64,000 nucleotides of DNA from Owenia fusiformis. Lineage: Eukaryota. Shown in pieces: positions 4,468 to 29,352 of this stretch. Each line of letters starts with the position of its first letter. The stretch's first letter is position 1. The stretch is taken from positions 25,110,001 through 25,174,000 of the forward strand of contig CAIIXF020000001.1 of the NCBI GenBank assembly GCA_903813345.2. Direction: 5' to 3'. The notes under the pieces were generated by a model, which saw only the letters and a list, made by a program, of their open reading frames with translations, searched no databases and was not told the origin of the DNA. The position numbers and the translations under genes are program-made.

Positions 4468-7400
4468 AAAACGATAAAACAATGTATGGATTGATACCAG
4501 AATATTGTATTTTCTAATGTTGCCCTTTATGGTTATTATTGGTCATAGAATAAATAGTTTTACAAAAATAAAATTCAAATTATTCCTCAGTTGAGACTGA
4601 CACTCAAAGCACTATTTGTGTACCACCACTCAAAGGTTTCTTACGCCATACTTAAGACAAAAAGATCAACCAAGGCTTCTGCTGATCACAATCAATTTCA
4701 AATTACAGAATTACAATTTTCTTTTGGAATGAAAAATCTCTTGTCTTGTAGCTAATCTAAAAGCTATTGATCACACAGCATTGCCAAATAATGTGGCTTT
4801 CCAATCAGTTTATTTGCACATTAGTTCCGTTTATGTTTCATTAAAGCCCAGTCTCAGAAGTCACTCCAAAAACACTGATAAAACATATGATAAAGATACT
4901 CATTAATATAATAAAGGCATATTAAAATTTGATTCATTTTCAGATAAGGCGACTGAGACATTCAAATTAAGTGGGCATTGATTAGAAAAGTGTCATAATT
5001 ATAGGCCTGTCTCAGCTTTTCTGATAAAGTAATATTTTTAGGGAGCCTGACCAAATGTTGGCTTAAAGCTTAAGTATTCTTGCCATTTCTGACATGAGCA
5101 TCTCACTAATACAGAAGAACCATCTCCAATCACTTAAATTATTTTGAAATGGCCACACTAACTCGATTTGGACAATTACTGGATAGTTAGGTCTTCAAGT
5201 TTGAGAGCTGGACTACATTTGATGTATCATTCATTCTTCTGAAATATTCCAGATTTACTGTTATTCCATATTTCAGTATTTTGCCACGTATTGGATCGCC
5301 AATCGTTTTAAGCAATTAAACTATGAAAAAAGAAGAAAGAAAAACTTCAAATATAACAATATTATATTCCCACATATTAAGCCTTAGTTAAAATAACATT
5401 TCTGTGCATTTTCGAAAGTGCAGATATGATCAATGAACAGAATAGCAAGAAATGAATATGACGATACGTTTTTCTTGAAATAAATTGAACATATAAGACT
5501 AAATCTAATTATTGGTATCCTAGGTTACTTGAGCACCACCAAGAAATAATGGCCAAGAATAAAGTGGAAATATTTTATTTTATTTTGATGACTCCAATGC
5601 AATTTTACAAACACATAAATTTTGATACAACTTGGCCAGTACTTATGAGTTCATTTTTAGCAATTTGCTGTCTAATGCAGGGCTGCGATAAGATGCCAAC
5701 TGGTTAAGTGGTTCTGGTGGCAGAAAACAGTAGCCTTGCAAATCTTCTGTTTGACAAATACTTAAGCATAAGTCAAAGAACCAAAAACACAAACAATTTT
5801 TATATTGACAAATTGATGATTAAAATAGGATGATATAAAACCTTGTTTTCAGAAAATTTGGATAATTTTAAACAATGAGACATAGGATGAAGAAACTATT
5901 CTCGGAAAAGAGTTCACAACAGTAAGGGATGGTAGAAGGAATATACGGAACACGTCATGTCTAAAACAATGGTTCTTGATTAAAAGCCGACAGGTTAATT
6001 CATGGCAGTAATTGGAACTAATGCTTATAATGTATCAAATCAACATTACATCAATTTTAACGCACATTGTTGAAGGTTAACATTGCGATTATCAGCCTAA
6101 GTAGCTATTTTAGTCAATACTCATAATGTCCTACCAAATCACAATGTTCATAATTTAGCCATTTAAAGTATAATATCCAGCACAATTTTTCAAAGCTTTC
6201 AAAGTAAGATTTCACTGATGTTTGGAAATGCATTAGTGCTAACTGAAAAAGATTAATTGAAACTCACTTTTGACAAACATTATCAAATAAACTACGTCAT
6301 ACATTATATGTGACTTTGTTCAGGAAGTAAAATGCTGGATTTTACACCTTAAACTGTTATATAGTGTTTAAATCTTAAAATATACACTTATCTCAGAATA
6401 CTTTTGGGCCTTACAGCTCAATTTATTACATACTAGTATTTTTCAACAAATTTTCTTAAAAACAATTCATTGGGATGTATGCTATGCAATATTGTTAAAC
6501 GGTATAAGGGTGGTCCTCTCATTGCCATTTTCATGGATATACATAACAAGTTAATAACAAAAACTCTTCTAATTTGAAAAGTTTCACATATATTTTAATG
6601 AAAGAGTAGTACCCAAAACATCATCAAATTCAATCCACTTGATAAATTTTGGCAGCAATTTTCATGTCTTGGGAAATGATCTTGGATTTTCCAACCTTTT
6701 CCTTTGTACTCATCTTTTTTATTTTAAAAGATAAAAAGTTTGATTTTGATTCTGATAAGACAAATGTGTAATTTTTTTGAATAAAAAAGAATGATCAGTA
6801 GCAAAGTGTCATTTAAAGGTTCTATTCCATTTCATTGTAAATTAAAATCTGATTTTTGAAAAATTTCTTTTCGCATTTGCAAGAAAATAGCATTTTAAGA
6901 TTCACACCATCTATAACAGTGTATAATAACACAGCATACTTTATCTCTAAAGCTATTTTGTATTGAACCAGCAGTCTGAAACAGCCATAAGAAATAATAT
7001 TTGAATGATGGTAGCCATTTTTGTTGTTTTGTGATATGCTTTATTCAATAATGCTGAATTCAGCCTAGGCCCTGTCATATGTATATCAATTTTGAAAATT
7101 AAAATAAAGAAACCATCAAAACTAAAAACTAAATTTGAATGAGAATAAAAATATTTCAAACAACCTAGCATTGGGTCTTTAAGAATATACATCAGGACAA
7201 ATCTTGATATTATCATGAACTAGCATGAACATATACTACAACATGTTTCACCATAAATCATGTATTTTAAAAAATGTGTACAAACAAAAATATATACAAT
7301 ACAGTACATAATATTCTAAAGCATATGAACTTGAATATAACCTCAATAGCCAACTAGTTTTTAACTGTAATTGTAACTGTTATCATAATATGAAATTTAC

Positions 7401-7993
7401 ATGGCAACAGCTTGCACCATGTCCCCACCTGCAATCATCCACCACAGCCAAGGTGGAAGACACATACAATGGTCTTGAAGATTGTCAAAAGATGGCATAA
7501 ACTGTCCAATACTAACATAATTAAAATCTCATTAATAAATTGCTGAAAAACAGATTTCTTGTAATTTACCCAATGAAACAGGTTTATATTTTTATATTCC
7601 ACAAAGAATAATCTTATGACGCATTAAGACAATGAGTCTAAAACAAGTTCAATGGTCCCTCAAAAACTGTTTTATCCTGAATCAGGCTATATTGTCCTAT
7701 ATTTTTTATCCTTCCAATCGATCATCCACACAATTGAAAAGGTCACTTTTGAAGATTTTTTCTTAAAACGCAGTCAATGATTTGATTTCAAGATGGTTGA
7801 CAAGAAGTGTAGAAGTGGCAATTTTTAAATCTGCATAAGAACTTACTATCACCAAGAGGTCTGTAGCAGTATTTTAGAAACTGAGGGAAGAATTTTGACC
7901 GTATGAACATTCCTTGTTCCACAATATGTCCTCCACCTTAGAGTGGTGGGGACATAACAAATGCCATCTTAGTTCCTATCATCCTCTGGTAGA

Positions 7994-8587
7994 TTAGGTT
8001 GGTATTCGTCGTGCTCTTATAGAGGCTAACAGTGCATCTCTTGGCTCTGTGGCCCTTCGCTCATGCTCTCTCTGAGGCTTTGGTTGTCTTATGCCTTGTA
8101 AGCGTCCTGGTGTTACATGGCTTCGTTGTTCAGATGTAATTGGGCCTTCTCGTACAGCTGTAACAACGTCTTTCTCAACAGATGAAACAATCCCTTGTTG
8201 CTCAAACAGAATAGGTTTTAGCACAGATGAAATATGCCCTTGCTGTACAGATGAAATATGCCCTTGCTGTACAGATGAAATAGGTCCGTGATGTACAGAT
8301 GAAATAGGTCCTTGATGTACAGATGAAATAGGCCCTTGTTGTACAGATGAATTAATATGCCCTTGCTGTCTGGATGAAATAGGTACTGGTTGAGCACATG
8401 AAATGAGCTCTGTCTGTTGCTGGTAATTATTATTAAAATTCATTCCTTGTTGACCGTAGTACTGTCCTGTATACTGTCCTGTATATCTCTGGGGTAGGGG
8501 AGGTGGTTCTTGTCTCTTGGGTGACGCCTGCTGCGTGTAGGGCTGCATACCATTGCTGTTTATAGTGCTATAATAGTTACCCTCATC
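7994..8587 (-). CDS. Last exon of ZPBP-like gene: Tyr/Pro/Gln-rich cytoplasmic tail with 9-aa repeats and a C-terminal WH2-like helix
   Basis: Acceptor ttgcag|GAT at 8587; NYYSTI and PPPLPQR motifs, roughly 7-10 copies of a 27-bp (Q/H)QG(P/H)ISSV unit, ending EPRDALLASIRARRIPT*. Confidence 0.8.
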   Translation of the reverse strand, partial: DEGNYYSTINSNGMQPYTQQASPKRQEPPPLPQRYTGQYTGQYYGQQGMNFNNNYQQQTELISCAQPVPISSRQQGHINSSVQQGPISSVHQGPISSVHHGPISSVQQGHISSVQQGHISSVLKPILFEQQGIVSSVEKDVVTAVREGPITSEQRSHVTPGRLQGIRQPKPQREHERRATEPRDALLASIRARRIPT

Positions 8588-11500
8588 CTGCAACATATAT
8601 ATTCTTTTATTGACAGACACATAGCAGTATAGTGCAGTACTCATGGAAATGAACAGGTATCTCTCAGTAGGCAGCTGACTATAATTTATTTATTCATTTT
8701 TCAATTAATTTACTGAATTTTACTTGTAAACCGAGACACACACATGTATGTGACACAGCTGAGGAAAATTATTTGTGTACAAAATCTTACAGTGGATAGT
8801 CCCTATATTTAATTTCAGCCACAAAATATATTGCAAATAAAGTTAATAATCTAATTTTATTGATGATTCAATAAGTTTTTTGATTACCTGATATGGTGGA
8901 GCTGGGGGTGAAGCTTTTGATGGCCTAGATGATTTTGTTTTAGTGGTTTTAGAGGTTGTCAAAGGCTTAGGGCTAGGTTTGGCTTTGGACTTTGTTCCAC
9001 AACTGCAATAAAATACGTTTTATATGAAATGACTGAATGTACCCAACATTAACATATCATAACCAACCGCCATAAACATATCATAATCAACCGACATAAA
9101 CATATCAAAACCAACCAACATAAACACATCACAATCAACAGACAATAACATATCACAATCAACCGACATTAGCATATCATAATTAACCGACATAAACATA
9201 TCAAAACCAACCAACATAAACACATCACAATCAACAGACAATAACATATCACAATCAACCGACATTAGCATATCATAATCAACCGACATAAACATATCAA
9301 AACCAACCAACATAAACACATCACAATCAACAGACAATAACATATCACAATCAACCGACATTAGCATATCATAATCAACCGACATAAACATATCAAAACC
9401 AACCAACATAAACACATCACAATCAACAGACAATAAAATATCACAATCAACCAACATTAGCATATCATAATCAACCGACATAAACATATCAAAACCAACC
9501 AACATAAACACATCACAACAAACTGACAAAAACCCATCACAACCATCCAACATAAAAATATCACAACTGACTGACTTAAACAGATCACAACCAACCGACT
9601 TAAACATATCAAAACTAACCGACATAATCATGTCACAACCTACCAACGTTAACATATCACAACCAACTGACATAACTACATCACAAACAACAAGCATAAA
9701 AGCATAACAACCAGACAACATAAACACATCACAACCAACCAACACAAACTAATCACAATATTATACACATCATGAACCTACCGACATAAACTGATCACAA
9801 CTTACTGACATAAGCATTTTACAACCAACCGACATAAACACATCATAACAAATCAACATAAACACATCACAACCAACCAACATAAACACATCACAACCAA
9901 CCAACATAAACACATCACAACCAATCAACATAAACACATCACAACCAACCAACATAAACACATCACAACCAATCAACATAAACACATCACAACCAATCAA
10001 CATAAAGACATCACAACCATTATCAACCAACAGCATAAACACATCACAACCAATCAACATAAAGACATCACAACCATTATCAACCAACAGCATAAACACA
10101 TCACAATAAACAATCCTTAACCATCACAACCAAACAAAATACATCATTACAATCAACTGACAAACACATCACAAGCAACCAACATACACATATCATAACC
10201 AATAGACATAAACACATCACAGTACAACAAACAAGACACACAGGGATAAATATTACAAGAGCAAATAGCAAATGCACACACGCCAATCAGCACAAGACTA
10301 CAAACAAACAAATCACAAGCAAAGACAAACACATCACAAGCAAACAACATAAACAAATCACAAGCAACCAATGTAACATAACCCACAAAGATCTGTTACT
10401 CCGAGTAAAAATGAAGACAGAAACATTGAATTCTCTTTATAGCCATTAAATTCCATAAAATGACATAAATACAGTTGAAGTTTTAGATTGCAGTAAGAAA
10501 TAAAACAAGGCATTAACATGACAGAATGTCACCACCTAGTTGCTCACAATATTATGAGTTCAATCTTAAGTCAGATTTGAATTTCAGAGAACTAAGAACT
10601 TGTAGATGATTTTGAGAAAATAAATTGGTCAATTTGAAACAAGTTGAAAAAATACCTTTTTGACCTTTTTTGACCTTGAGAAGGTAATTGAAGGCCAAAT
10701 CTCAAATCTAAAGTCAGATTTGAACTGTTGAGAACTTGTAGCTGATTTTGAAAAAAATGGTCAATTTGAAGCAAGTTGAAAAAATACCTTTTTGACCTTT
10801 TTTGACCTTGAGAAGGTAATTGAAGGCCAAATCTAAAGTCAGATTTGAACTTATGATAACTTGTAGATGATTTTGAAACATTTGGTCAATTTGAAGCAAG
10901 TTGAAGAAAGACCTTTTTGACCTTTTATTGACCTTGAAAAGGTCAATAAAACAGTAAACATAAAACCGCCAAACACCAACCACCAACCCCCATCCGCCGT
11001 CAAAAAAACGGAGACCATAACTTTTTGGTGGTGACATAATGATAAGAAATGAGGTGAGACAAAAAGATACAGAATTATTGGAAAATTTTGGAAAAGTTGC
11101 TCTTTATCTTTGATTAGAATGACACTTCCTAGTGAAGCCACATGCCTCAGATTCAGGAGGAAACTGATGTACTGTGTGTCACTTACCACCAACATAATCC
11201 GCAGCCAAACAAAATGATTGCAACTACAGCACAAATAGAGATAGGCACTGCGGTTTCAATATCTTTCATGCCTCCCCTCGCAAGTATTTTAGTTACCATG
11301 TTCTTCATGTCTGAAAATAGTAAATTAAATACATCATATCAGTCTACACTTTTTCTCACATAATACTAATAATTAGATTTTTAAAATAGTTACTACAATG
11401 AAACGTGTAAAGTGGAACAACTCTAGAGGTGAAGCACCTCTGTGAGTGAACTTACAGAGGTTTCCCAAGATCAACTGACTTAATGATAAATGAATCTCTA

Positions 11501-14500: not shown

Positions 14501-17500
14501 ATGAAAAAAAAAGAATGGAAAATTTCAAAATATATTTTGATCGATCAGTTCTACCTGCTAACATGGAGCGAAGGATGCAGAAAATACAGGAGACATAAGT
14601 GGCTGCAGAGCTTTCCTTATTGGCGCACCTCAGACATGTCTTCAACAGAGTCATCAAAGCGCTCACATCCAGCTAGCATATCACAGATGCCGCAACTAAT
14701 AACAATCCATTGGCTTTTGAAACGGTGGCATAACCCATTGCACAACCATATGATAAAGTACCGAGTTGTTTGGCTAAACTGTCAAAGATGCGGCACACTC
14801 CAGTGCAATTGGGCCATTAAACCACATCTGTTGTCAAAGAATCACTGTGATTATAATGAATAAAAGTGAATTATGGCCACTGAATTACTGTGTTCGGCTA
14901 TTATTAAGATATCACTGTTAAAGCTGACGAGGTGGTTGTGTTGTAAAGACTGGGCGGGGCAGGGTACATATTAACTGATAGCCCGCACGTGGTAACAGTA
15001 ATTACAAAGCTCCGCTAGTGAGACCTCAATTAAATGCTCTTTTACAGTTGACAATATCTAGCCTAAGTAATTGATAATTCATACAGACTTGCTACAATGC
15101 CATTTTAATAAGTAATGTTGAAACTCATTAGCAATTCTATGTAATAGTTAAGCCAGCAAATTGAATATTTGCTCCTTTATGTTTGTGAATGGTATATGAT
15201 AAGTGTTGTGATTATGTTTCATTAGGAATTTCATTACAGGCTACTCCCCAGTCTATTGACTGGGAGGTACGCTACTTTTAATGCTGTAAAGCTTTGATGA
15301 AAGTAGTTTCATTTTCACCTTTTTAGTTCTACTCTTTCAAACCTAACTATGAAACCATGCTCTTCATAAGCAAAACTCAGTAACAAGGCATTACCATGCA
15401 AAATCTCACTACCTGCCATTTGTTACAGACACTGACTGCTGAATACCAACTGCCAATCACCAAACACAGTCCACAAAAAAGTTGGAGACTATTACAGTAT
15501 GTCACTACGTCTTGTGGCGACATAATAATAGTGTCATATACCCTGATGCATTTCACCACTCGATCAGTTCAGAGTAACCCAAACCACCTTATAAAAATCA
15601 ATACTATCATTTTTTGTATAGGAATTCTGATTTTACATTCACCATTCTGTTCAAATGGCAGCGTCACTTACAAAGGATTAAAAAATTTGGGGAGATTTTA
15701 TGGATCTGTTTCTCCTTATCAAGAATATCAAATTAAAGGGAAAAGTTCCAAGCAATTTCAATGATCTTCTGGTATTAAAACTATTCTAAAAATTATATTT
15801 TTGAATAATCACTCTTTGAAAAAAATGAGGTTGGACATTTTCCATTTTGTACATTAAAAATGTCTGAATAAAGAAATAAAAGAGGCTCAAACAGAAAAAA
15901 ATCATTTTCTATATAATAATAATCTTTGAGAAGCAGCACTAAAGGTGGTTGTTAAAAACAATTTTAAACAAGACATTAACATGCAAAACGTCACAACCTG
16001 CCATTTGTTACAGACAATGAATCTCAACCGCCGAATACTGAACACCAACTGCCTAACACCAACCATATCCACAAAAAAGTTGGAGACAATAACAACATGT
16101 CGCCATTTGTGTTGGTGACATAATAAAACCAATATACTTACTGCCCTTAATGAATGCAACCTTTGTGCAATCTCCCTTAGTTCTAGAGCCAGATTTGGTT
16201 GTGTTAGTCTTGGGAGGACAGTCAAAACATTTGGTCATGGAATGACTGGGCTGGTAGGTTCCTGGATTACATTTAATACAACCCTTGTCTTTTGCTCCAC
16301 TGTACTCTCCTGGCACACAGGTTTCTGTAAAATAATTGCATCTGAAGCTTGGTTGTCAACTTACAACAACAATCATCTACATGTTTCAAATATATTTTAA
16401 TTCATAACTTATATGTATTTAATAGACCTGGACATAAACTTTCTTTTCTGCAATTTTTGAAGCCTGAAAAAATCATGCAGAAAGTGAAATTATTGCCTTT
16501 TAATTTAAATTCGAAAAAAGGTTTGAGTAGTTTTTCAATCTTGGAACTTGATCATATTGATAAGGAATCAAGCCTTTAAGAAGAAAAGGTATGTGTCCAA
16601 GTCTATTGATTATTTTAGACCTATGCATGAGAATAACAGCTATAATGTATGTATAAACTGTGAAAAGTTTCATTTAAATCACTTGACAGATAAAATACTC
16701 TAGCTGAAAAATGAGACCTTTTGAAAAAGATCTTGTTGATTATAAAAGATAATATTTAAAATATAAGTAATAATTGATTCATCCCTCAAAAGCATGTTAT
16801 CCATTGTGGGATTCATAGGCTGTACTACCCCTTGGAATCCAGGAATTTCCCTCTCAAGCAATAGGTAAAGAGGGGCATTGATAAATCAGAATGGTATTAG
16901 CTATTATCCTTACCACAAAGTATTCCCTGTGTTCCAAATCCTGGTGGGCATTCAAAAGACACTTCTTTGGTGGTATGTTTTGGTTCTGGGGTTATTTCAC
17001 CAGTTGCTGTCTCCGCATTGATGAAATCTTGAACTTTCTTGTAGCCCTGCGTATTTTGAATTGAAGCATGACATCAAAACATCATAAAATACTATGTTTA
17101 CAAATGATATGAATATCTACCCGAGTGCCCAGCATTCTGCGTGAATTCAATTTTACATGATTACACAGAACTACATATTGATATTTGATTTAATTGTTCT
17201 AAGTACATGTATACATTATGTAAGTTGTCTTGCCTCCTTTTCAAATAAACAAATATGTAAACAAATATGTGTATTCATGGTACAGGGATTGCCCCCCGAA
17301 AACGAAACCTTCAATTTTTGCAACAACTTTGATCTAAGATTATGGGCATTTGTATTTATAGGTTGCATTTTTAGACCACCTTGCACTCTAGAAAGTATTT
17401 AATGTAAAAAACCTCACCAGCTCAAGATTCTCTATGACCTTAGTCTCAATGCAGGCTGGTTCACACTTGGGTGGAGAGAAGTCAGTGGAAGTATGGGCAA

Positions 17501-20500
17501 AGAATGATACCCATAGTTCATATTTCAATGCTTGTGGATCCCCCTTAAAAATACAAAAACAAGTATACTTAAAAAACAATATTCATAATAAACGAAGCAC
17601 CCCCAATACAACATATTATGCCGAAATATGAAAACAAAATCAACTGTAGAGTGTATAAGCAGCAAATAAAGGAGGCAATTTGCCTCTTCAAGGGAGGCAA
17701 TTTGCCTCTTTGATCATAATGTTGAGAGTTTTGTCTAAAATATATAAGATTTTCAATGATACATCAGATCCTAAAATACTCCTTCCTTTATTTTGTATCA
17801 TAATGAAGGCATATTTTTGAAATCAAATGGTTAGAAATGGAAATCAATTTGGTGACTCAGATTTGAATTTCCAGATTTGCAAAATTACACAAAAAAGTCT
17901 AAAATGCTACTATCATAAAATGGAAGTAGCTTACATTACTTACAGGACTTTTGGTGAAGTGGCACTCATTTGTAAAATCTTGAAAAATACATGAAGTAGA
18001 ATTGGGGCACAATGCTTCTTTGACTGCCACCATCTTTACTGTATTGATTGCGTCCTGGCACTCGTTGGCACTATATTTCAGTGATATCTTGTAGCTAAAC
18101 TTTGGTATATGATAAACTGAAAGCAAATCCAAGACATATCATAAAGAAACATGTAGAATACATTCAGAGAGTATAGAATACATATTTGGCAAATATAGCA
18201 TATCTATTTTGAGAATATAGAACACCTATTTGGAGAATATTGATTATTTTCTTATATTTCCCACAATTAACTTTTTCATCTGTTTTTATGTTGTTTTAGA
18301 AAAACATTGAATAACTCAACACAAAGTTATAAATAATTGCCAGAGCAACATATTTGTGTTGAGTATTTTTTGAAATTTTTAGGAGTGTCACGAACTAAAG
18401 CTTACTCCAAAAACCTTTTCAGGTAAACAATATAATATGTACATATGTATTATAATGAACTAATGACAATTATAAAATTGATTTGAGGTATAGGGATCAT
18501 ACATAAATATTTTTATGACTTAATATACCTCACAGCACAAAATTGATGAAATCAAAAAGAGCAATTTACAGGTTGTTTCCTTTATGTCTCTTTAAAAATT
18601 TCAAATCATTTCATTTTATCAAATATGATCATAAATGGAAAATTTCAATGGCACAGGAGAAAATTGAAAAGTAAATTACATTTCAACTGGATAAATCTCA
18701 ACTTGGAATGATAAGACACTATAGTTTAAAAGTTTAAAAAATTAATGTGAAATGCATACATAGTTTAATTGACTACAATACCAAAGTGAAAATGCAAAGT
18801 AAAATTTGGAAGACACTTTTAATAGCAAGTTTAACATATGGAACATTCCAGATTGCCATGATGGTGTTTTATACTCAAAGTGATTTCCACACAATATCAT
18901 CATTACAAGGAAAACACTATGAAAATGACCAAAACATTGAGGATGAAATGGAATCAACTAGATATATTTCCACTATGCAAATAGCACCACCTTGGCACCA
19001 CCAGAACATGGCAGAGGGGTTTGATAATCTGAGAGAGGCGAAACATGCATCAGAAGAGTTGAATGTTAGAAGACAACACTATCAAATTGGAAATGTTACT
19101 GTTACAGAAGGGACAAAATTGATTATACCCAAATCAAATGTACTGTTTTTAAAAACACACAAAACAGCTAGTTCTACTTTACAAAATATATTGATGAGAT
19201 ATGGTGATAATAATAACCTCACATTTGCCATCCATCAGAAATCTCACGTCATTAAACCAGCTCAACCTTTCAAGAGAGAGTATGTGATGCCAGCAAAGGG
19301 AGACTATAACATTCTCTGTCACCATGCAAGATATAGCACAGAAATGTCCAAAATTCTGCCAAAGAATACTCCATTTGTAACAATTCTTAGAAATCCTGTT
19401 GATGTGTTTGAGTCCACATATACATATTTCAATATAACAGCAAGGTGCTTTGGAATTATGCAGCAAAATGGAGTTGAGTTACTTGCCCAAAATACAATGG
19501 ACTTGGATGTTAGGAAATTTCACTGTTTCAAGCGCAACATGATGCTATCTGATCTTGGTCACAAGAAAGAAGATGATGATGATATAGCGAACATTACAAA
19601 GAAAATCAAGGAAATAGATGATAACTTTGATTTAGTCCTCATTGCAGAATACTTTGAAGAGAGTTTAATTTTGCTGAAGCAATTATTAGGTTGGCCTTTG
19701 GAAAACCTTGTATATTTTAGACAAAACTCTAGGCAGAATTTTCAAAGAGGCAAACTGTCTCCCTCTACAAGAGAGTGGGTGCGAAAATGGAATAAAGGTG
19801 ACGAGATGCTTTATAATCATTTTAACCAATCATTTTGGAAAAGACTTCACTCATATGGCTATGATCAAATGCAAGACGAAGTTTTTCAGCTCAGACGACT
19901 ATGCAATACATGGCATACATACTGTGTAAAAGAAGTGACATCAGCTATAAAAATGACTGATTTAAAATTCAAACCAATAAGTGCCCCACTAAGCATCTTG
20001 GGATACACACTTTCTGACGATGGGATGAGAAATAAAACTTGTAGACAACTGGCAACCCCAGAAATTCCATATACCAATTATATCCGACAGAAATTGCTAT
20101 ACAAAGGCATTTTGCATCAATCTGGCATAGATCAAAAAGATATGGAAATTCCTTTCATTCGACGTAAGTGACATCTTTAAGATTAAGTGAAAGCTTATAA
20201 ACTAATTGTTACCAATTATAAGTGATGAACAGCTATACATTTTATGAAGATGTAATGAGAAAAAGTTTTAGCGATCTGGCAATTATCTGTCACTGATTGC
20301 AATGATATATTTTATTCAGCAAAGAGAACATATAAATAAACAAACTTTCATCACTGCTGCCATCTTTTTGTTAACATTATGCCAATAGAGTTTATATAAA
20401 ATGGGAGGTCACTGAAAATCTTTTTATTATAATTTGTTGGAAGTGACATCAGTGACATCTTTACAATTTGATGAAAGCTAGTGTATAGGTGGATCATAAC

Positions 20501-23500
20501 TTTTTTTGCATTCAATTTCAGCATGTTTCCATAAGTGGTGCTTTTAATAATAGCTTTTTTGGGTAGCAGAACTTGACGTTACTTAAAAAATGAATAGCAA
20601 ATAATAATAATTTATATTGTGTGATAAAATTATCAAAATAGCAATTATGTATAATGGAACCAATTAATACAACTGACTTCAAAAATAAAACACTTCAATG
20701 AAAATAAATACCCAAATAAAATAATAATGTATTTTTCACATGAAAACAAAAAAAATTCTTTCAAAATTCAAAGCAACAAATAAAGACAATGCAATCAAGG
20801 ACACACAAAAATGTTAAAGTAAGTGGAATCACCATGAAATCAATGACCCCTGACTGTATCAATTATGACACCATTAGGTCAAAGCTAGGACTCTGATTTT
20901 TAATTCTCTGAATAATGAACTGTTAAAAATGCCTATTTTAGCCAAATTTTTATCGCTTGCATTTTGCAGCTTATAGCCTCAATGATGAAAATCACAAACC
21001 TAAAAGAGGATGAAAATTAATGCTTACCAACTACCATGTACCGATGAGTTTCAGTCAGATCTTGTCCCTCTCTACTTTTGCCCTTAGCTATGCATGTATA
21101 AAGGCCAGAGTCTTTAGCTTGAGCATCTGATATTTTAAGATCACCTGCAGGAGTACTTAAAAGTCTGGCATCAGCGACAGGTTTCATTTCTGAATCTTCC
21201 CATGTTACTGTTGGATCAATTATGGTCTTCTTACCCATGCAACTAAGCAGTTTCTCTTGCCCTTGCTCCACAAAGGCATCTGCAAGTTAAGGAAGAATGA
21301 CATTGCCTTCAAAAAGCATGTTGGACAATCAATGAACAGTAAGAAATATTTTCAAGCATGTGTACATTTGTAAGTAGTATACCGCAAGATCATAATTTTA
21401 CAATGGACACATGTTATAAGTAAAATTCATATCACAATATACTGTATGTCCACTTTTTTAAATAATACTCAAACTGAACAATTCAATTCTGATATAATAT
21501 TAAAGGACTACTGTATACCTTTGAGATGCGGTCGCTGAGAATCCCCTACATCAGCTTCCCTACGTAAAATATGTGACTCTAATGACTCCGAAGATATCCC
21601 CTCTAGATTTGTATTCGTTGAACGCTTTCTACGCTTCCTTGTTTTTGCATTGTCATTCGCTTTTGCTCTCAGGTCAGCCATGACCTTTGATAAAGGTAAA
21701 GTAAAGTGGGCCTGTGGAAATGAGGGCAATATGTGCAGGTTAAAGTCATATGCTGACCTCAGTTTACTCTTTACCGCAGGATCACAATCCAAAAGTGATA
21801 AGTCTTTTTTCGTTACTGAAAAGACACAATTACTTTCTGTAAAAATTAGAAGCATATCATTGTAGCTACATGTATTTCAAAATTATAATTGAAAAACTGT
21901 TTAACAATAGAGACAATGTTTTAAAAAATGACTTGCTATGGATCGTTTTAATGTACCGTGTTCAAACATTACTTGTAATTAACATCAAATTGGAATGTAA
22001 TGATGCTACACTGGGGTGAAACAGAGAATCTAATTGAATTCTAGCTCTATGATTTCCAGGTAATCATGTCAAAATATCTCCACTTGAATCAAGTTTCACC
22101 TTAATGTCCAATTCAATCAAGGAGTCATCATGGCCTTATCTTAATAGATCTCACTACATAGTCTCAGGGTAACTGAAAGCTTGCAGCACAGGAAATTGTA
22201 ACAATGTCAACACACAAATGTGTAACACTTTGTTACATTTCCTGATAAAATGATAGCTATATTAAAGTCACCACTCCTTGGTGGTGCTTATAATGAGGGC
22301 AATATGTGCAAATAAGTTCCAAATAGAAAAGATGAACTTACATTCTTTTACTGCCACCGCATGTATTATTCCATTTTTAGAATGCTCCATCGTGAAACAC
22401 ATTACGAGTCTGTAAGGATTACTGAAATTAAAAGAAAAAGTTAACTAACATATTTTAAAATATTTCTTTGGAAATTTCCAAGTTTCATTGATTTTACTGT
22501 TTTTTTTGATTGGCAAAATTAGAAAATTAAACATGTCAGAAAGGATGCAAAAATTAAATGTACATATATTTTTATGAACATTTTGTGAAACATTTACAGC
22601 ATTTAACATCAGTAACCTACATGAAACATGAAAAACACATTTTGAACCAGGACCTTAACTCTTTATAGCTCACTATCTGACCATAAGTACAATTAGATGT
22701 ACTACACTTACTGGTGAGTGCGGCGGGTCAGGACGAGCTTGAATTGAAGATGTGTCCTGTCACAATGGATGCTCTTGTAAGATCTCTGGTGATTGTTTCT
22801 CCCCCACCCTGAAACCAGAAACTACATATAATTGCTCATATTTCTATCAAACTGTCTACTTTTACTAAGATCAACAAGTCATTGATTGAACATATGTACC
22901 TTTACAGCAATATGTTCTGTACCTGGGAAGTTGAAACTTACATTGATACTTCTCAACTTTAATTGCAACATGAATTACCATATTTGGGAATTACACGAGA
23001 CCACTTAGCAGCCAGGACTAAATACTAATGAAGGACCCACGGTCCTGTGCTCATACAGTTTGGAACCTTCAGAGGAATTTATATCCTGACTTTCAAACAA
23101 AAATATTGATTTGGATTTGTAGTCTCGACCTTAGATAGAAACTTAGATAGCATAGTTGTGTGACCTAGTTTGATGACCTTTGACCTTGAAAATTTTACTT
23201 ATTCAGAGCTCAGTAAGGTATTTTGTGATTAAGCTGACCAAAATTTACATCCAAAAATCAATTTGAAAAATCAACTTTTTTGACCTTTCGAAGGTCACTG
23301 AAGGTCAAGTAAAGGTCAAATCCTAAAACTAATGATTTGAACTTCTGGCAACTTGTAGATGATTTTCAAAAAAAATTTGGTCAAATTGAAGCAAGTTGAA
23401 AAATAACTTGTTTTACTGTTTTTTTTACGTCAAATATCTCAAAAACGGTAAAAATTTGATGCTGACGTATATTGAGAAATATGTAGGGAATGCTTAAGTC

Positions 23501-26500
23501 TATCAATGATGTAATTTATTGCAGGAAATGATCAAGTATAAGGCAAACTTTAAGAATCTTGTCAATCACAAAACCTGCCATTGACTTTATACATGAGAAA
23601 GTTTCCTGAAAATGATTTAAGTCCTACTTTTTTTCAAATTTTATAGAGTAAACACCAAAAACCGTTATTCCAAGAGCTTTGAAATCTTCAGAGGACATAA
23701 GTTGCATATACACCAACTACTTAAAGTTATTTGAAAGTTCTACTTCAACAAAGTGTCTAGTATTTACAGAAAATTTGACTTTTTGACGTCAAAATCCTCA
23801 ATTTCTCAGAAACTGGGCAAACTTGGGAAATGGCGATGATAGGTCAAATAGACATTATCGATATGCATAAAATGAATGTGGATATGACTCAATCCGAATA
23901 GCAGTTTTAATTTGTGTGGCCAATGTTGACGGACGGACGGACGCCGAACCAACGGACGGACGGACGAACCAACGGACGGACGCCTGGTCGATCCCATAGG
24001 CTCACTGTGTGAGCCAAAAATGATACAGACTTATAATTTATATTGTCAAAATTGAGATAATTTGTGAAAAATGAGACAAAAAATGATTTCTGAAATTGAG
24101 GTTAATATAGGAGTAAATTACCAGCATAAAATGATGAGTATTACAGTAGTTCAGATGAATAGCTGTTCTGTTTTTGTCAAAAAATGTTCACAGACAGATG
24201 GAAAGTGGGAAGGAAGAATGGACAGATGGATGAGTAAGTGGTTCCATTGTGAACAAAACAATAAAGATATACTCACAAGAAAATGGATCACCAGGAACAG
24301 ATCCCCTTCTTATTCCAGTATATTCTATATGTGTCATCCCCAAAATTATTTGCTTCATACGTGGTTTCTTTATAAGCACTTGCTTCCTCTTTGATTCCTT
24401 TTTGATAACCTTCTTCTTAATTGCTCTCCTGTGCTTTGTTCGTTTAACCCCATGTCCCTTATCACTGTCTAATGGTTTGAGGGTGTAAATACCAAGATAT
24501 TCCTGAAGGTCACATCTCTCTTCTCTTTGTTGTTCAGATATTGTTGGTGTCACAGCTATTATAGGTACCACATCTGAAATGTGTACATACATCAAGCATA
24601 ACTCTAGCTATTCTAGAAAAATGAATGAGATAAAAATTGGAAATAGAGTTACCGGGAGCAAATTGCAGTCAAAAATTAAAGTAGAAATTAATAGGCCAAG
24701 TTCATTTTTACCAGTTTTACTGATTTCCATTTCATTCCATAATATCAATCTCTGCATTAAAACCATTTCCTATTAATAAGTTAAACAGGCACTCTACATA
24801 TAAGAGAAATTTCTAAATTTGATACAGTGAATAATATTTCCATTTGTGGGGAATGCCTGTGTCACTTTCAAAAATAGTATAAACCCCTTATTTATCTTGT
24901 GTACAAGAAACACAGGTATGCCCGTCAATAGATTAAAATATTTGTATAATACTAACCGCGTCTATTGCGACTCCCTTTGTTTTCTTTATTCTGTCTGTAT
25001 TTTTTGTAAATATATGTAATGTGTTTTTTCTTTATCTTTTGAGCTACTAGGGATTCTTTTTGTTGGTTTTTCGGGTTTTTATTTTCTTGTGCATTTGATG
25101 GTTTTGTTAAATCTTTTTTTATGGATTGATGTCTTTTGTATTTTTTGGTACGGATATGGAGGCCTAAATGATCTGAATTTATGACTGTTTCTTCCCATTT
25201 CTGAGATTTTGCTTTCAGTACATCATAAGTCATGCGTAACTCATCTAAGACAGCTTTGACCACATTGTCCTTGTGCATTGGGGTCAATATTATGGAATTT
25301 GACATATCTATGATGCAGGACTTCAGAGTTTTTAACACATGTTTTGTATGAGTTTTTTTGAATATGTCAATAAAGCTTTCAATTGTTTTGCTTAATATGC
25401 TATGTGGGTTTTCTTTAATTGTGTGAAGGTAGGTTTGAAGTCGATGCAATAAATCATTAACATGCAATTTGGAATTATATTCTAGACTATCATAATCCTC
25501 AAAAGGTAGTGTTGGCATCATTGTAGTTGTGACCTCAGCTTGTTTGTAGGCTGTACCTTGTGCCAATTTTGTTTTCTGCTTTTTATTTGGCTTGACAGTT
25601 TTCTTATCATGTGCAGACTTTGCCTTAATGTTTGGTGAAGATGGGTTTTTATGCTTGACCATTTTCTTATCTTGAGCAGGTTTTTTGGGCTTGACCATTT
25701 TCTTATCTTGAGCAGGTTTTTTGGGCTTGACCATTTTCTTATCATGTGCAGACTTTGCCTTAATGTTTGGTGAAGATGGGTTTTTTGGTTCAACTTTTTT
25801 CTGTTTGTGCAAACCTTTTGCTTTTATGTTTGATTCTTTCTTATTTGCTGGTGATGATTTTCTTGGCTTGGCAATTTTCTTATCGTGTCCTACTTTTGTC
25901 TTAATGCTTGCTGATAATTTTCTTGGCTTGACTGTGATCTTACGCTGCACTATCTTTAAGTTTGCTGATGATTTTCTTGGCTTGGCAGTTTTCTTACTAT
26001 GCCCTACTTTTGTTTTAATGTTTGCTGTTGATTTTATTGGCTTGGCAGTTTTCTTTTGATGCCCTTCTTTTGGCTTCATGCTTGCTGATGATTTTCTTGG
26101 CTTGTCAGTTTTCTTATGATGCCCTACTTTTGGCTTCATGCTTGCTAATGGTTTTCTTGGCTTGGCAGTTTTCTTATGATGCCCTACTTTTGGCTTCATG
26201 CTTGCTAATGATTTTCTTGGCTTGGCAGTTTTCTTATGATGCCCTACTTTTGGCTTCATGCTTACTGATGATTTTCTTGGCTTGGCAGTTTTCTTATGAT
26301 GCCCTACTTTTGGCTTCATGCTTGCTGATGATTTTCTTGGCTTGGCAGTTTTCTTATGATGCCCTACTTTTGGCTTCACGCTTGCTGATAAATTTCTTGG
26401 CTTGGCAGTTTTCTTATGATGCCCTACTTTTGGCTTCATGCTTGCTGATAAATTTCTTGGCTTGGCAGTTTTCTTATGATGCCCTACTTTTGGCTTCATG

Positions 26501-29352
26501 CTTGCTGATGCTTTTCTTGGCTTGGCAGTTTTTTTATGATGCCCTACTTTTGGCTTCATGCTTACTGATGATTTTCTTAGTTTGCCTGTTTTCTTATGAT
26601 GCAGTATCTTTATCTTAGATGCTTTTCTTGGCTTGACTGTTTTATGATTACCTATTTTTGGCTTAACTATTTTCTTATGATGCCCAATTTTTTTGCTTTT
26701 ATTCGCTGATGGTAATCTTCTACGCTTTGCAATTTTCTTATGATGCCCTATCTTTGTTCTCATGCTTGGTGATGATTGTCTTGTTTTAAACTTTTTCTTA
26801 AGATGCTTGATATTTGTTTGAATATTTGCTGATAATTTTCTTGGCTTTGCAGTTTTTTTACGATGCCCTACTCTTGCCTTGAAGTTTACTGAAGATTTTC
26901 TTGAATTAACCTTTTTCATCTTAGGATGTCCTATTTTTGTCCTAATGTTTGCTGGCCATTTCATTGGCTTAACTTTTTTCTCAGGATGCCTGATTTTTGT
27001 CTTAATCCTTGCTGATGATTTTCTTGGCTTGGGAATTTTCTTATGATGCCCTGCTCTTGTCTTAATGCTTTTTGATGATTTTTTTGTATTGGTAGTTTTC
27101 TTATGATGCCCTTCTCTTGTTTTAATGCTTGCTGATGATTTTCTTGGTTTGGAATTTTTCTTATGTCCTACTCTTGTTCTAATGTCTGCTATTGATTTTC
27201 TTGGCTTGCCATTTTTCTTATGATGTCCTACTCTTGTTTTAATGTGTGCTGATGATTTTCTTGGCTTGGCATTTTTCTTACGATGTCCTAATCTTGTCAT
27301 AATGCTTGCTGATGACTTTCTTGGCTTAACTCTTCTGTTATGATGCACAATTTCTGTGTTAATGTTTGCTGATGATTTCCGAGACACGGCCATGTTTTTA
27401 TCATACATGGGCTTAAGATTTTCCTTGTTATGAATTTTTCTAGGTTCTGGTTTTCCATTGTTTCTTCCTTGATAAGATTCTTTTTTACTCGATGTAGTCT
27501 CATGACTTTTGATCCTAGATGAAGCATGATTTGAAATGGGTTTATCTTCCTTATTTCTAGATGAAACATGACTCAAAGAGGGTCTTTCTTCTTTATTTCG
27601 AGATGTGGCATGACTCAGAGAGGGTCTTTTTTCTTTATTTCTAGATGTGGCATGACTCACAGGGGGTTTGTCTTCTTTATTTCTAGATGTGGCATGACTC
27701 ACAGGGGGTTTGTCTTCTTTATTTCTAGATGTGGCATAACTCAGAGAGGGTCTTTTTTCTTTATTTCTAGATGTGGCATGACTCACAGGGGGTTTGTCTT
27801 CTTTATTTCTAGATGTGGCATGACTCACAGGGGGTTTGTCTTCTTTATTTCTAGATGTGGCATGACTCAGAGAGGGTCTTTTTTCTTTATTTCTAGATGT
27901 GGCATGACTCACAGGGGGTTTGTCTTCTTTATTTCGAGATGTGGCATGACTCAGAGAGGGTGTACCTTCTTTGTTTTTTGAAGTGGCATGACTCACAGGT
28001 CTATTTTCTTTTTTTCCTGATGTGGCATGAGTTGAGAAGGGCCTGTCCTCTTTGTTTCTAGTTGTGGCATGACTCAAAGAGGGTCTAAGATCTTCACTCC
28101 TCGGTGAGGCAAGGCTTGAAGAAGGATTACTCAAGGTGAGAAGCAGAAGAACAACAAGTACACCTGCAAATACAAAATTAACAATATTTACCAAGATGCC
28201 AGTAGGAAGTTACCAGTTTCACCACCAGGGGCTCTTTTTTGTACCGTAAGAAGTTACAAAGGTTTATTAGCCTATTGTTTAATTCGCGAATTTCATAAAG
28301 TTGCATTTTTGTCAGATTCGTAAAGTTACAAACAAAATTACGAAACTACTGTAGTGACATTATGCTTGCTTTCGTTTGCAGATTTAACAGCACCTCTGAC
28401 CCTTTCGTAACTTTGCTAATGGCTTCTTATTTATTCATTTATATTATGATTTGTGATGTTTTGTCATTCTAAATCAGAAAACACAAAGGGCAACACCGTG
28501 GTCAACTTATTATCAACCTATTTCTATATTTTTTTAGTATGTTTCATGAAACGGTGGAATATGACGTCAACCCATTCATAAATCTAGCTCTAAACAATTG
28601 AAAAATTATGAATAACTTATGGAAGCGTACAAAAAATGATCCATTCACAACTTTACGAATTTGTAACTATTTAAATATTTACCAAGTGCCAACATTTGTT
28701 ATTACGAACGGTGCAAAAACGGACTCTAGGCTGTAGGTGGCTAATTTGGGTCAGATAACATGGCAGAGTATTAGAAAGTTCCCTTAAACTTGAATATGTT
28801 CATCAGCTAGTGAATAATTTTTCATTTTACCCTTATCTTACCCTTATCCCATTAGGGAGCCCAAAAATACTTTTGAAATCTATTTTCACTGGGAAAAATC
28901 TTGTGCTCTTTTTGGAACCTCTGTATATGGGTAGGTTCAACTGTTTATAATAAAGCCTCTGGCAGTAATGAGTAACCAGGGAGATGTATGTAAAAGGCCG
29001 ACGAGTCAATCTCTACACTTGGGTCCAAAATCCAAAGTCGGTGCTTGGAGGTCAGTGGTCTGATGGTCTATGGACCGAAGTTCGACCTGTCTCTTGACCA
29101 AAAGTCTGCCATTATTACTTTATATGGCAAATCATCAAGGCAACGATCACGATGTCATATATTGTGATGAAGATATGACGTAATATCACATAAACTACAT
29201 GTATGACATCAGTCACATATTGCCCTATCAACTAAACAAACAACAGAGCGAAACGTCACATATCACTGTTGAATATATTTTAATTTGTGACATCATTAAC
29301 ATTTTACCTCACCAACAGTAGTTTGTTCATGTCTTTCTCTGGTATTGGACAT
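7994..29352 (-). CDS. ZPBP: Multi-exon ZPBP/Sp38-like type I membrane protein (~1905 aa) with polybasic repeat pro-region, Ig domain, Sp38-like domain, Cys-rich repeat, TM helix and WH2-like tail
   Basis: Phase-consistent GT-AG exons (minus strand): 29352-29313 (tentative start), 28163-24957, 24573-24277, 22808-22712, 22421-22342, 21815-21519, 21279-21028, 18116-17944 (alternative donor 17935), 17543-17418, 17046-16914, 16324-16142, 11310-11187, 9002-8888, 8587-7994; total 5718 nt, open throughout. The Ig motif LKISDAQAKDSGLYTC is followed by YHIPKFSYKISLKYSANEC...ECHFTK...LKYELWVSF...CEPAC...CPPGFG...CETCVPGEYS, matching the recalled vertebrate ZPBP pattern (YREPxYxYxFxARYxAAPC...ECHRVK...LQNELFFAF...CFPGYG...CVICSPGSY). 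The symbol means 'ZPBP-like'; orthology is untested. Confidence 0.8.
9040..10390. repeat. Intronic 24-bp minisatellite (approx. AACCAACATAAACACATCACAACC) with a 96-bp higher-order block
   Basis: A/C-rich unit repeated dozens of times; 9070-9520 repeats as a 4x24 = 96-bp unit; the array degenerates toward 10390. Confidence 0.9.
10503..11040. mobile_element. HINE/DINE-1-like non-autonomous element with internal ~125-140-bp tandem units
   Basis: Starts AAACAAGGCATTAACATG; 11-bp subterminal inverted repeat ATGTCACCACC (10526-10536) / GGTGGTGACAT (11027-11037); about 3 internal units containing TTTGACCTT...GAAGG, also present at ~23260-23410. Confidence 0.6.
11187..11310 (-). CDS. Transmembrane exon of ZPBP-like gene
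   Basis: ttttcag|AC acceptor and TG|GTAAGT donor; encodes ...ETAVPISICAVVAIILFGCGLCW, continuing into CCGTKSKAK in the next exon (Cys cluster plus basic stop-transfer). Confidence 0.8.
15376..15530. repeat. Short interspersed repeat (internally deleted HINE-like element), copy 1
   Basis: AACAAGGCATTACCATGCAAAA...CCTGCCATTTGTTACAGACA...GGCGACATAATAA; similar to 15965-16127 and to the ends of 10503-11040. Confidence 0.6.
15965..16127. repeat. Short interspersed repeat (internally deleted HINE-like element), copy 2
   Basis: AACAAGACATTAACATGCAAAA...CCTGCCATTTGTTACAGACA...GGTGACATAATAA; lies about 15 bp from the 16142 splice donor. Confidence 0.6.
16142..18116 (-). CDS. Four exons encoding the Sp38-like domain and a GCC2/GCC3 (ephrin-receptor-like) Cys-rich repeat
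   Basis: Exons 18116-17944, 17543-17418, 17046-16914, 16324-16142; CVPGEYSGAKDKGCIKCNPGTYQPSHSMTKCFDCPPKTNTTKSGSRTKGDC matches the C-x-x-G-T-Y-Q...C-x-x-C-P...T...G-S...C consensus. Confidence 0.82.
18792..20171 (+). CDS. GAL3ST: Galactose-3-O-sulfotransferase (GAL3ST / cerebroside sulfotransferase family), single coding exon, nested antisense in an intron of the ZPBP-like gene
   Basis: 459 aa from ATG 18792; N-terminal signal anchor (type II Golgi topology); PAPS-binding FLKTHKTASST and ILRNPVDVFESTY; family motifs FDLVLIAEYFEESLILLK and WNKGDEMLYNHFNQSFW. AATAAA near 20335. The paralogue number cannot be assigned. Confidence 0.93.
   Translation: MQSKIWKTLLIASLTYGTFQIAMMVFYTQSDFHTISSLQGKHYENDQNIEDEMESTRYISTMQIAPPWHHQNMAEGFDNLREAKHASEELNVRRQHYQIGNVTVTEGTKLIIPKSNVLFLKTHKTASSTLQNILMRYGDNNNLTFAIHQKSHVIKPAQPFKREYVMPAKGDYNILCHHARYSTEMSKILPKNTPFVTILRNPVDVFESTYTYFNITARCFGIMQQNGVELLAQNTMDLDVRKFHCFKRNMMLSDLGHKKEDDDDIANITKKIKEIDDNFDLVLIAEYFEESLILLKQLLGWPLENLVYFRQNSRQNFQRGKLSPSTREWVRKWNKGDEMLYNHFNQSFWKRLHSYGYDQMQDEVFQLRRLCNTWHTYCVKEVTSAIKMTDLKFKPISAPLSILGYTLSDDGMRNKTCRQLATPEIPYTNYIRQKLLYKGILHQSGIDQKDMEIPFIRRK
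21028..21279 (-). CDS. Ig (I-set-like) domain exon of ZPBP-like gene
   Basis: Phase 1-1 exon; LLSC...VTW...LKISDAQAKDSGLYTC. Confidence 0.9.
22993..24020. mobile_element. HINE/DINE-1-like (non-autonomous Helentron-type) element
   Basis: TGACCTTTGACCTTG core, (GGAC)n microsatellite at 23926-23982, terminal hairpin GGCTCAC-TGT-GTGAGCC (23999-24015) followed by an A-run. The left boundary is approximate. Confidence 0.65.
24957..28163 (-). CDS. 3.2-kb exon: signal-peptide core followed by Lys/His/Arg/Ser-rich tandem repeats
   Basis: tttgcag|GT acceptor and G|GTTAGT donor; hydrophobic VLVVLLLLTLS, about 13 copies of 14-aa SHATSRNKE(D/K)(K/R)P(P/S)(V/L) (42 bp), about 25 copies of 20-aa KPRKSSASMKPKVGHHKKTA (60 bp), then a non-repetitive, likely helical region. 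Confidence 0.85.
28228..28728. mobile_element. Degenerate MITE-like element
   Basis: Imperfect inverted ends (TTTTGTACCGT..GTTACAAA / TTTGTTATTACGAACGGTGCAAAAA) and internal TTCGTAA/TTACGAA motifs; related sequence at ~45280-45360. Confidence 0.4.

Follow-up and report, generated by a model that had tools for sequence, protein, structure and literature searches.

We analysed the C-terminal end of a ZPBP-like membrane protein of Owenia fusiformis, encoded on the minus strand of a 64,000-nucleotide stretch of genomic DNA (the window; coordinates are 1-based throughout). Judged from sequence comparison, this end, roughly its last 15 residues, is a conserved, helix-only WH2-like motif, that is, an amphipathic helix of the WH2 type followed by two conserved arginines and, shortly afterward, by the end of the chain. 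It falls outside WH2 as that family is defined: the LKKV half is absent and the Pfam cut-off is missed. An earlier reading of the letters alone (the sequence-only reading) had taken PRDALLASIRA for a WH2-type helix; this observation was confirmed, and a near-identical copy in the distant homologue P0010 makes it stronger than the letters alone could.

The C-terminal end and its likeness to WH2

The minus-strand open frame 8689..7994 ends in HERRATEPRDALLASIRARRIPT and a TAA stop codon at 7996-7994. Codons for the final 17 residues, EPRDALLASIRARRIPT, occupy 7997-8047, and the final 18 codons together with the stop codon occupy 7994-8050. The features of this end are as follows.

8006..8041, minus strand: core motif RDALLASIRARR, a WH2-like amphipathic helix and then the conserved Arg-Arg (codons 183-194 of the last exon)
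7994..8005, minus strand: final residues IPT and the TAA stop (from the sequence; RNA depth spans the stop)
7997..8587, minus strand: coding part of the terminal exon, 197 codons, a disordered Gln-, Ser- and Pro-rich tail predicted to be cytoplasmic (from the RNA joint and cover, and tblastn of the public Owenia protein model P0001)

To check the transcript, three stranded raw RNA-seq runs (X17-X19) were aligned to 7300-9050. RNA cover was unbroken from 8597 to about 7831, with a depth of 5-10.6 across 7949-8066, stop codon included. The first mate lay on the plus strand in all aligned reads, and the RNA therefore comes from the minus strand. The sole splice joint listed was at 8586/8887 (CT..AC on the plus strand, GT..AG on the minus strand; 6+3+5 reads), and no internal splice joint was present within the terminal exon in these reads. 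Loose read ends at 9003 (7+8+3 reads) carried the letters of window positions 11188-11217, the end of the membrane-span exon. From the joint and the loose ends it follows that the transcript links the membrane span, the juxtamembrane exon and the last exon as read. That the motif lies at the extreme C-terminus, as had been claimed, was thus borne out by the stop codon, the RNA cover and a domain order that places the tail after the span.

The WH2 consensus is given as R-ALL--I--G-----LKKV in PMC6203859. The Owenia end fits each consensus position up to the Ile, and the chain is over 7 residues past it, at the place where the WH2 linker and LKKV would be; the replacement of LKKV by RRIPT had been read correctly. 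When the last 38 residues were searched against Pfam, WH2 (PF02205) was the sole family to match (E 0.0091, 16.1 bits); with 207 residues of the end, the match had E 0.067 and 13.3 bits. It covered profile positions 2-14 of 28, the helix half, and residues 21-33 of the last 38. In the six-frame translation of the window (127,996 residues) the strict pattern R.ALL..IR had a single occurrence and the loose pattern LL..I[RK] had 17. A profile of the two ends, Owenia and P0010, run against 177,635 distinct PDB sequences, gave as its top match 3m3n_W (E 0.033), an N-WASP tandem-WH2 construct crystallised with actin, in which the matched segment was GRDALLDQIR; the only other match was a ribosomal protein at E 9.1. 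With a single Pfam family and N-WASP as the top PDB match, the resemblance to a WH2 helix is specific. AlphaFold2, given the last 68 residues as a single sequence, placed a helix over residues 44-64, which cover the motif; the helix blocks had the highest confidence of the model (mean predicted local distance difference test scores of 82 and 77 versus 54-61 elsewhere), which is weak evidence. An ESM Atlas feature search with the last 38 residues returned nothing usable.

Conservation of the motif

Homologues were collected by a HMMER scan of P0001 against 1.84 billion representative sequences. At E <= 0.001, 240 proteins matched, of which the best 150 were examined, and the homologue set consisted of the 43 proteins, from the matches listed, in which the module from the Ig domain to Ephrin_rec_like was matched as a single stretch. 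P0010, a UniParc entry of 2481 residues, is identical to the Owenia protein at 102 of 414 positions (~25%) over the ectodomain and membrane span, and the two tails are otherwise unalignable outside the motif. Its C-terminal end is PPPPSQPAPAPPAMGMGRGALLASINARRNN; in the terminal segment, RGALLASINARRNN, 10 of 12 residues are identical to Owenia at the same terminal position, the motif being followed by 2 further residues in P0010 and by 3 in Owenia. When the Owenia last exon was compared with the whole of P0010 by BLASTP, the top alignment was RDALLASIRARR / RGALLASINARR (10/12, E 0.043 for a single comparison). At 15.3 bits (E 0.017; cut-off 23.1; positions 2-14), WH2 was again the sole Pfam family to match the end of P0010, a PPPP/PAPAPP run lies 7-20 residues ahead of the motif there, and the two Arg after the helix are kept in both proteins with a spacing of three residues. 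P0010 begins with a signal peptide followed by long basic repeats, and a word-index search with its residues 1850-2481 matched P0010 alone.

In a shuffle test, the Owenia 12-mer was slid along 29 tails, scored with BLOSUM62 and compared with 20,000 shuffles per tail. The P0010 tail scored 42, which was reached by 0 of 20,000 shuffles (shuffle maximum 31). The tail of Branchiostoma belcheri P0036 scored 26 at RTATLASVRTSE, 18 residues from its end (19 of 20,000 shuffles, ~0.03 when corrected for 29 tests), and the other 27 tails were unremarkable. P0163, an alternative model of the P0036 gene from a Branchiostoma hybrid, in the 90% cluster of P0036, has the P0036 end replaced by GPPPPGPP repeats, some 200 residues in all and similar to a formin FH1 region; this model ends inside the repeat and may be incomplete. 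Further ends were alike by eye, namely the chondrichthyan ZPBP-like ends NLEAIFRHGR and NLAAILKHGR, the ostracod end ATEPKRLATRMLQSR and the spider end SMMKRAARN. None of these was significant in the shuffle test or matched WH2, and all were rejected.

A quick IQ-TREE tree was made from 40 modules, leaving out P0058, P0091, P0100 and P0141, models that looked truncated or aberrant. The Owenia protein grouped with P0005, P0007 and P0011 on an unstarred branch (Shimodaira-Hasegawa-like approximate likelihood ratio test 86), and the placement of P0010 was not settled. Two or more far-removed members thus retain the motif and the majority do not; this patchy distribution may reflect either repeated loss, or models without the last exon, or a long-form subfamily beyond the resolution of the tree.

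In the last exon, the RNA reads also revealed 20 variant sites between codons 22 and 177, of which 14 are non-synonymous and 6 synonymous, each considered singly; codons 178-197 held no variant in the three runs (~2.3 expected, P ~0.1). At 8100-8101 (minus strand, codon 163) two adjacent variants share the codon TTA: 8100 A>C by itself would create a TGA stop, and together with the 8101 variant it gives CGA (Arg). In every run the 8101 variant was counted at least as often as the 8100 variant, consistent with a joint haplotype.

A number of points weigh against regarding this end as a WH2-like motif with a conserved function. The Pfam score of 16.1 bits is well below the 23.1-bit cut-off, and the LKK[TV] half, which is defining for WH2, is missing: after the Ile there is only RARRIPT and the stop in Owenia and NARRNN and the end in P0010, and profile positions 15-28 have no match in either protein. 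A phmmer search of PDB with the single 38-residue Owenia end produced no WH2 match, only a weak match of ribosomal protein L29 to the region preceding the motif. Amphipathic LLxxI helices are, moreover, common docking motifs for numerous partners. Among the tails tested only P0010 and, more weakly, P0036 resemble the motif; the P0036 tail has no Pfam WH2 match; and P0005, P0007 and P0011, the nearest homologues among the matches listed, lack the motif at their annotated ends. Placed on the tree, the three carriers of the motif call for three separate changes; given the starred branches, a single origin may also account for them. Finally, the lack of variants in the last 20 codons was not significant and the adjoining 3' untranslated region was variant-free too, and polymorphism was therefore rejected as an argument for constraint. 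Lack of conservation in orthologues, which the sequence-only reading had named as refuting it, holds only in part: the distant P0010 has the motif in nearly identical form, and the three nearest homologues lack it.

Gene and protein architecture

The Owenia protein consists of an Ig domain, a ZPBP-type middle part, an Ephrin_rec_like part, the membrane span AVPISICAVVAIILFGCGLCW, a basic stretch and a disordered tail of about 235 residues. We infer that it is a type I membrane protein and that its tail should be cytoplasmic, because domains of extracellular type precede the span and basic residues follow it. The remaining parts of the gene are listed below.

8223..8383, minus strand: 24-nucleotide tandem repeat, 6.6 copies, encoding the QGPISSV-type repeats of the tail (repeat analysis; P0001 ends inside it)
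8492..8506, minus strand: PPPLP motif, within EPPPLPQR, which also fits PxxPxR (common to the tails of P0005, P0011 and P0038)
8561..8572, minus strand: YSTI motif, of the form Y[AES][TS]I (common to the tails of P0005, P0007, P0011 and P0042)
8888..9002, minus strand: juxtamembrane exon, basic and Ser/Thr/Pro-rich, CGTKSKAKPSPK...SPPAPPYQ (RNA joint to 8586; loose ends at 9003)
11187..11311, minus strand: membrane-span exon, ending in AVPISICAVVAIILFGCGLCW (tblastn, P0001 residues 734-774; RNA reads link it to the exon at 9002)
16056..16325, minus strand: Ephrin_rec_like (PF07699) cysteine-rich ectodomain exon (Pfam E 9.4e-11, 41.8 bits)
20990..21307, minus strand: exon of the N-terminal Ig domain, Ig or Sp38 type (Pfam I-set 30.2 bits; Sp38 23.0 bits, cut-off 23.1)

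The public model P0001 has 921 residues and is named by NCBI 'unnamed protein product, partial [Owenia fusiformis]'. It is 100% identical to the part of the last exon that it covers and ends within the 24-nucleotide coding repeat, without the final 88 residues and hence without the motif, which is therefore invisible to screens based on annotation. By tblastn it matched the window in 12 pieces on the minus strand, from 25518 to 8264. Its start Met at 25518 lies inside a 1085-codon open frame (24952-28209, minus strand) that is open upstream in frame; the full protein is probably about 1900 residues long, with an additional 5' exon. The upstream frame holds Lys-rich tandem repeats with 60- and 42-nucleotide periods and has a hydrophobic signal-like stretch at its start, with no Met. 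A word-index search with the last exon found the Owenia model only, and one with P0001 residues 430-800 found two unrelated proteins that share domains.

Between the membrane-span and juxtamembrane exons lies an intronic minisatellite (9046-10221, 24/48-nucleotide period, about 40 copies), and a 125-nucleotide repeat occupies 10595-10943. Downstream of the stop, RNA cover was zero at 7772-7830 and returned, again on this strand, at 7300-7650; one contig of run X1 reaches across 7622-8057 and carries small insertions around 7825. This break in cover probably reflects an indel polymorphism in a long 3' untranslated region and not the end of the transcript.

Relation to the ZPBP family

Pfam matches of P0001 were I-set at 26.7 bits, Sp38 at 19.9 bits (weak) and Ephrin_rec_like at 36.7 bits. 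Sp38 (PF07354) scored 23.0 bits with the Ig exon alone and 19.9 with P0001, against a cut-off of 23.1, and general Ig models scored higher. The HMMER scan gave single-stretch matches over query residues ~440-730 to P0028 (2.2e-17), P0032 (4.6e-16), P0039 (1.3e-12), P0075 (3.7e-07) and P0088 (1.4e-06). E-values against proteins that NCBI names ZPBP1, ZPBP2 or ZPBP-like ranged from 2.2e-17 to 1e-05, and these proteins came from birds, sharks, rays, bichir, lamprey, coelacanth and lizard. Because the module matches include proteins named ZPBP1/2, the label 'ZPBP-like', already used in the sequence-only reading, is justified at the superfamily level. The tie to sperm, egg coat and acrosomal process drawn in that reading was neither supported nor refuted by the present results, in which RNA runs X17-X19 show that the gene is expressed.

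By a crude hydropathy rule, a membrane span was present in 32 of the 43 module homologues, and 29 of these 32 had a tail of at least 20 residues; span and tail occurred in several non-mammalian vertebrate members of the set and in most invertebrate ones. The bird and shark ZPBP1/2 representatives P0075, P0088 and P0127 had neither under the same rule. Span and cytoplasmic tail were seen in the ZPBP1/2-like proteins P0118, P0141, P0028, P0032, P0039 and P0065 (from ray, chimaera, bichir, lamprey, lizard and coelacanth), and the ray and chimaera tails share the C-terminal end NL[EA]AI[FL][RK]HGR. Compared with vertebrate ZPBP1/ZPBP2 (Sp38, PF07354), then, the Owenia protein has a homologous ectodomain, made of the Ig domain, the middle part and the Cys-rich Ephrin_rec_like part, but it differs from the bird and shark proteins in having a span and a tail of about 235 residues. 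It also probably has a long basic-repeat N-terminus, and its Sp38 score lies at the cut-off or below it. No description of such an architecture came up when the literature was searched for ZPBP in combination either with WH2 or with transmembrane or invertebrate.

Other motifs of the tail

Short motifs recur in the tails of the invertebrate members. PPPLP is found in those of Owenia, P0005, P0011 and P0038; the last of these, from the sea star Patiria miniata, matches Owenia exactly over EPPPLPQ. Y[AES][TS]I is found in those of Owenia, P0005, P0007, P0011 and P0042. These could be sites for SH3, WW or profilin and for SH2 or AP-2, respectively, and because such short motifs are common to invertebrate tails, the tail looks like a series of docking sites of which the WH2-like helix is the last. 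No WIRS motif (hydrophobic-x-T/S-F-x-x) was seen on reading the tail by eye.

Comparison with known actin-binding systems

Like the WH2 (PF02205) segments of N-WASP, WAVE and WIP, the Owenia end has the helix R-x-A-L-L-x-x-I-R, lies in a disordered cytoplasmic region downstream of Pro-rich sequence, and has basic residues after the helix; from the Arg onward, N-WASP GRDALLDQIR and Owenia PRDALLASIR are identical at 7 of 9 positions. The position downstream of Pro-rich motifs, which the sequence-only reading had noted, holds true only loosely, with PPPLP about 150 residues upstream and SPPAPPY one exon before. Unlike these proteins, Owenia has no linker and no LKK[TV]/LRRV, ends 7 residues past the Ile, falls below the Pfam cut-off, and carries its motif on a transmembrane receptor rather than on a soluble regulator. 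In the WCA module of the WASP family the WH2 is followed by a central (C) helix and an acidic (A) region with a Trp (introduction of PMC10411975), whereas the Owenia protein ends right after the helix. As it has no central or acidic region, it cannot be an Arp2/3 activator.

Three other systems resemble the Owenia end in part. Chlamydial Tarp (PMC5792643) also has a WH2-like helix in a disordered region without LRRV/LKKV and binds monomeric (G-)actin; it differs in having extra hydrophobic residues after the helix (LDVVY), in that the construct was of 100 residues, and in being a secreted bacterial effector instead of an animal membrane protein, and in this comparison no sequence relation to Owenia was found. 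The C-terminal tail of PINCH-1 and the N-terminal WH2 of alpha-parvin (PMC6203859) are likewise single, loosely conserved, terminal WH2-like motifs, which bind G-actin and filamentous (F-)actin and act by avidity, two per complex; they retain the LKK part and have a weaker helix part, while Owenia shows the reverse. The intracellular domain of Caenorhabditis elegans HPO-30 (PMC10411975), the closest functional precedent among the articles consulted, is, like that of Owenia, the disordered tail of a membrane receptor, and it acts directly on actin: it binds filament sides and barbed ends, the latter only upon dimerisation, and its authors know of no earlier transmembrane protein that has a capping-like activity. 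As described there, HPO-30 differs in that the whole tail is used, with no WH2-like motif, in that it acts on F-actin and not G-actin, and in being a claudin-like four-pass protein.

Proposed mechanism

Two precedents bear on whether half a WH2 could function. The helix segment of WIP (residues 29-46) bound actin with 10-fold lower affinity, while for the LKKT part (residues 46-63) the loss of affinity was more than 1000-fold (PMC7407642, citing Chereau 2005), and Tarp, which lacks the LRRV motif, still bound G-actin with a dissociation constant of 102 nM (PMC5792643). By analogy, WIP 29-46 and Tarp suggest that the helix half of a WH2 alone can work. We tentatively consider that the Owenia end may work like this helix half and that actin binding is plausible. 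To the observed sequence, transcript structure, WH2-helix likeness and conservation, this reading adds helix formation on binding, actin as the partner and a role in the cell. On contact with actin, RDALLASIR would fold into a three-turn amphipathic helix, whose Leu-Leu-x-x-Ile face would dock in the hydrophobic cleft that separates actin subdomains 1 and 3, the site that WH2 helices occupy. The two conserved Arg after the helix might make electrostatic contacts that replace the absent LKKV strip; in WAVE2, the two Arg of LRRV form salt bridges to actin D24 and D25 (PMC5792643). The outcome would be a weak (micromolar) hold on actin monomers or filament barbed ends at the membrane, in which receptor clustering would raise avidity and the Pro-rich (PPPLP) and YxxI motifs further up the tail may cooperate.

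Alternative explanations

Conservation of the end indicates selection and names no partner. The terminal helix may instead be a conserved motif for a partner other than actin, for example a helical-bundle adaptor of FAT-, vinculin- or formin DID-like type, and would then tie the receptor to signalling or, indirectly, to the cytoskeleton. We regard this as unlikely but deserving of serious attention, given that the WH2 match is incomplete and that the tail has other, family-wide docking motifs (PPPLP and YxxI). Paxillin LD motifs have the consensus L-D-x-L-L-x-x-L with acidic flanks, and the formin DAD has an M-D-x-L-L-x-x-L core and a basic cluster, C-terminal to an FH2 domain; DALLASI resembles the core of both. 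Both identities were nevertheless rejected. With respect to the LD motif, Owenia has Arg in place of the first Leu, P0010 has Gly in place of the Asp, the flanks are basic instead of acidic, and Pfam gave no match. With respect to the DAD, Pfam found no FH2 or other formin domain in P0001, there is no Met ahead of the Asp, the Asp itself is not kept, and no Pfam DAD matched at E <= 10; what remains is a residual likeness, D-x-LL-x-x-I and then RARR. More broadly, no Pfam family except WH2 matched the Owenia or the P0010 end at E <= 10, and the top PDB match was an actin-bound WH2, both of which favour a WH2-like helix over a docking site for a different partner.

It is quite improbable, in our estimation, that the end serves as a basic amphipathic helix on the acidic lipids of the inner leaflet, as a calmodulin binder or as a di-arginine (RXR) trafficking signal. 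The segment is net positive, with 3-4 Arg in 12 residues and a hydrophobic face, it is terminal in both Owenia and P0010, and RAR in Owenia fits RXR. However, RXR is lost in P0010 (NARR), about 230 residues of disordered chain separate the motif from the membrane, and the exact retention of R-x-A-L-L-A-S-I exceeds what charge or amphipathicity would need. Other terminal signals were considered and rejected: a dileucine signal of the form [DE]xxxL[LI], for which the Owenia Glu is one residue too distant and P0010 has no acidic residue there, and a 14-3-3 mode III or PDZ end, given the different final residues of Owenia (IPT) and P0010 (NN). We consider it highly unlikely that the likeness to WH2 is a functionless coincidence in a tail of low complexity that evolves fast. 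Such an origin would suit a Pfam match under the cut-off, a tail tolerant of non-synonymous variants (14 of 20) and the lack of the motif in most family tails, but it is difficult to reconcile with 10/12 identity at the same terminal position of the otherwise unalignable P0010 tail, a score reached by none of 20,000 shuffles, and a strict pattern that occurs once in the six frames of the window; the last 20 codons, variant-free in three RNA runs, also point away from it, though not significantly. We thus retain the conserved, helix-only WH2-like motif as the preferred description.

Neighbouring features of the window

Within an intron of the ZPBP-like gene, between exons 17902-18126 and 20990-21307, the opposite strand carries a single 477-codon open frame (18738-20171, plus strand) for a galactose-3-O-sulfotransferase (PF06990, E 6.2e-79). 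At 38551-38952 and 39178-39366 (plus strand) two open frames resemble successive parts of an F5/8 type C (discoidin) domain (E 0.001 and 0.0043, both below the cut-off); they are probably exons of a neighbouring gene.

Implications

Because many non-mammalian members of the family carry a membrane span and a tail, soluble mammalian ZPBP may be a derived form. A further reading, which we hold to be rather doubtful, is that the ancestral ZPBP was a type I receptor with its tail as an actin-handling device, and not a soluble protein of the acrosomal matrix. In such a receptor the YxxI site would be joined by a PPPLP or poly-Pro run feeding SH3/WW adaptors or profilin-actin; a single deep lineage (Owenia, P0010 and perhaps amphioxus) would add the terminal helix-only WH2, which would hold an actin monomer or barbed end at the membrane. 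Ligand-driven clustering could then seed or anchor actin, as would suit, for example, an acrosomal process, and mammals would have retained the ectodomain only. If the helix does bind actin, the Owenia protein would be a rare example of a single-pass receptor with a direct, adaptor-free hold on actin, and a WH2 would be reducible to its helix and two Arg and still be under selection across very distant animals; if true, this would change the view of the ZPBP family.

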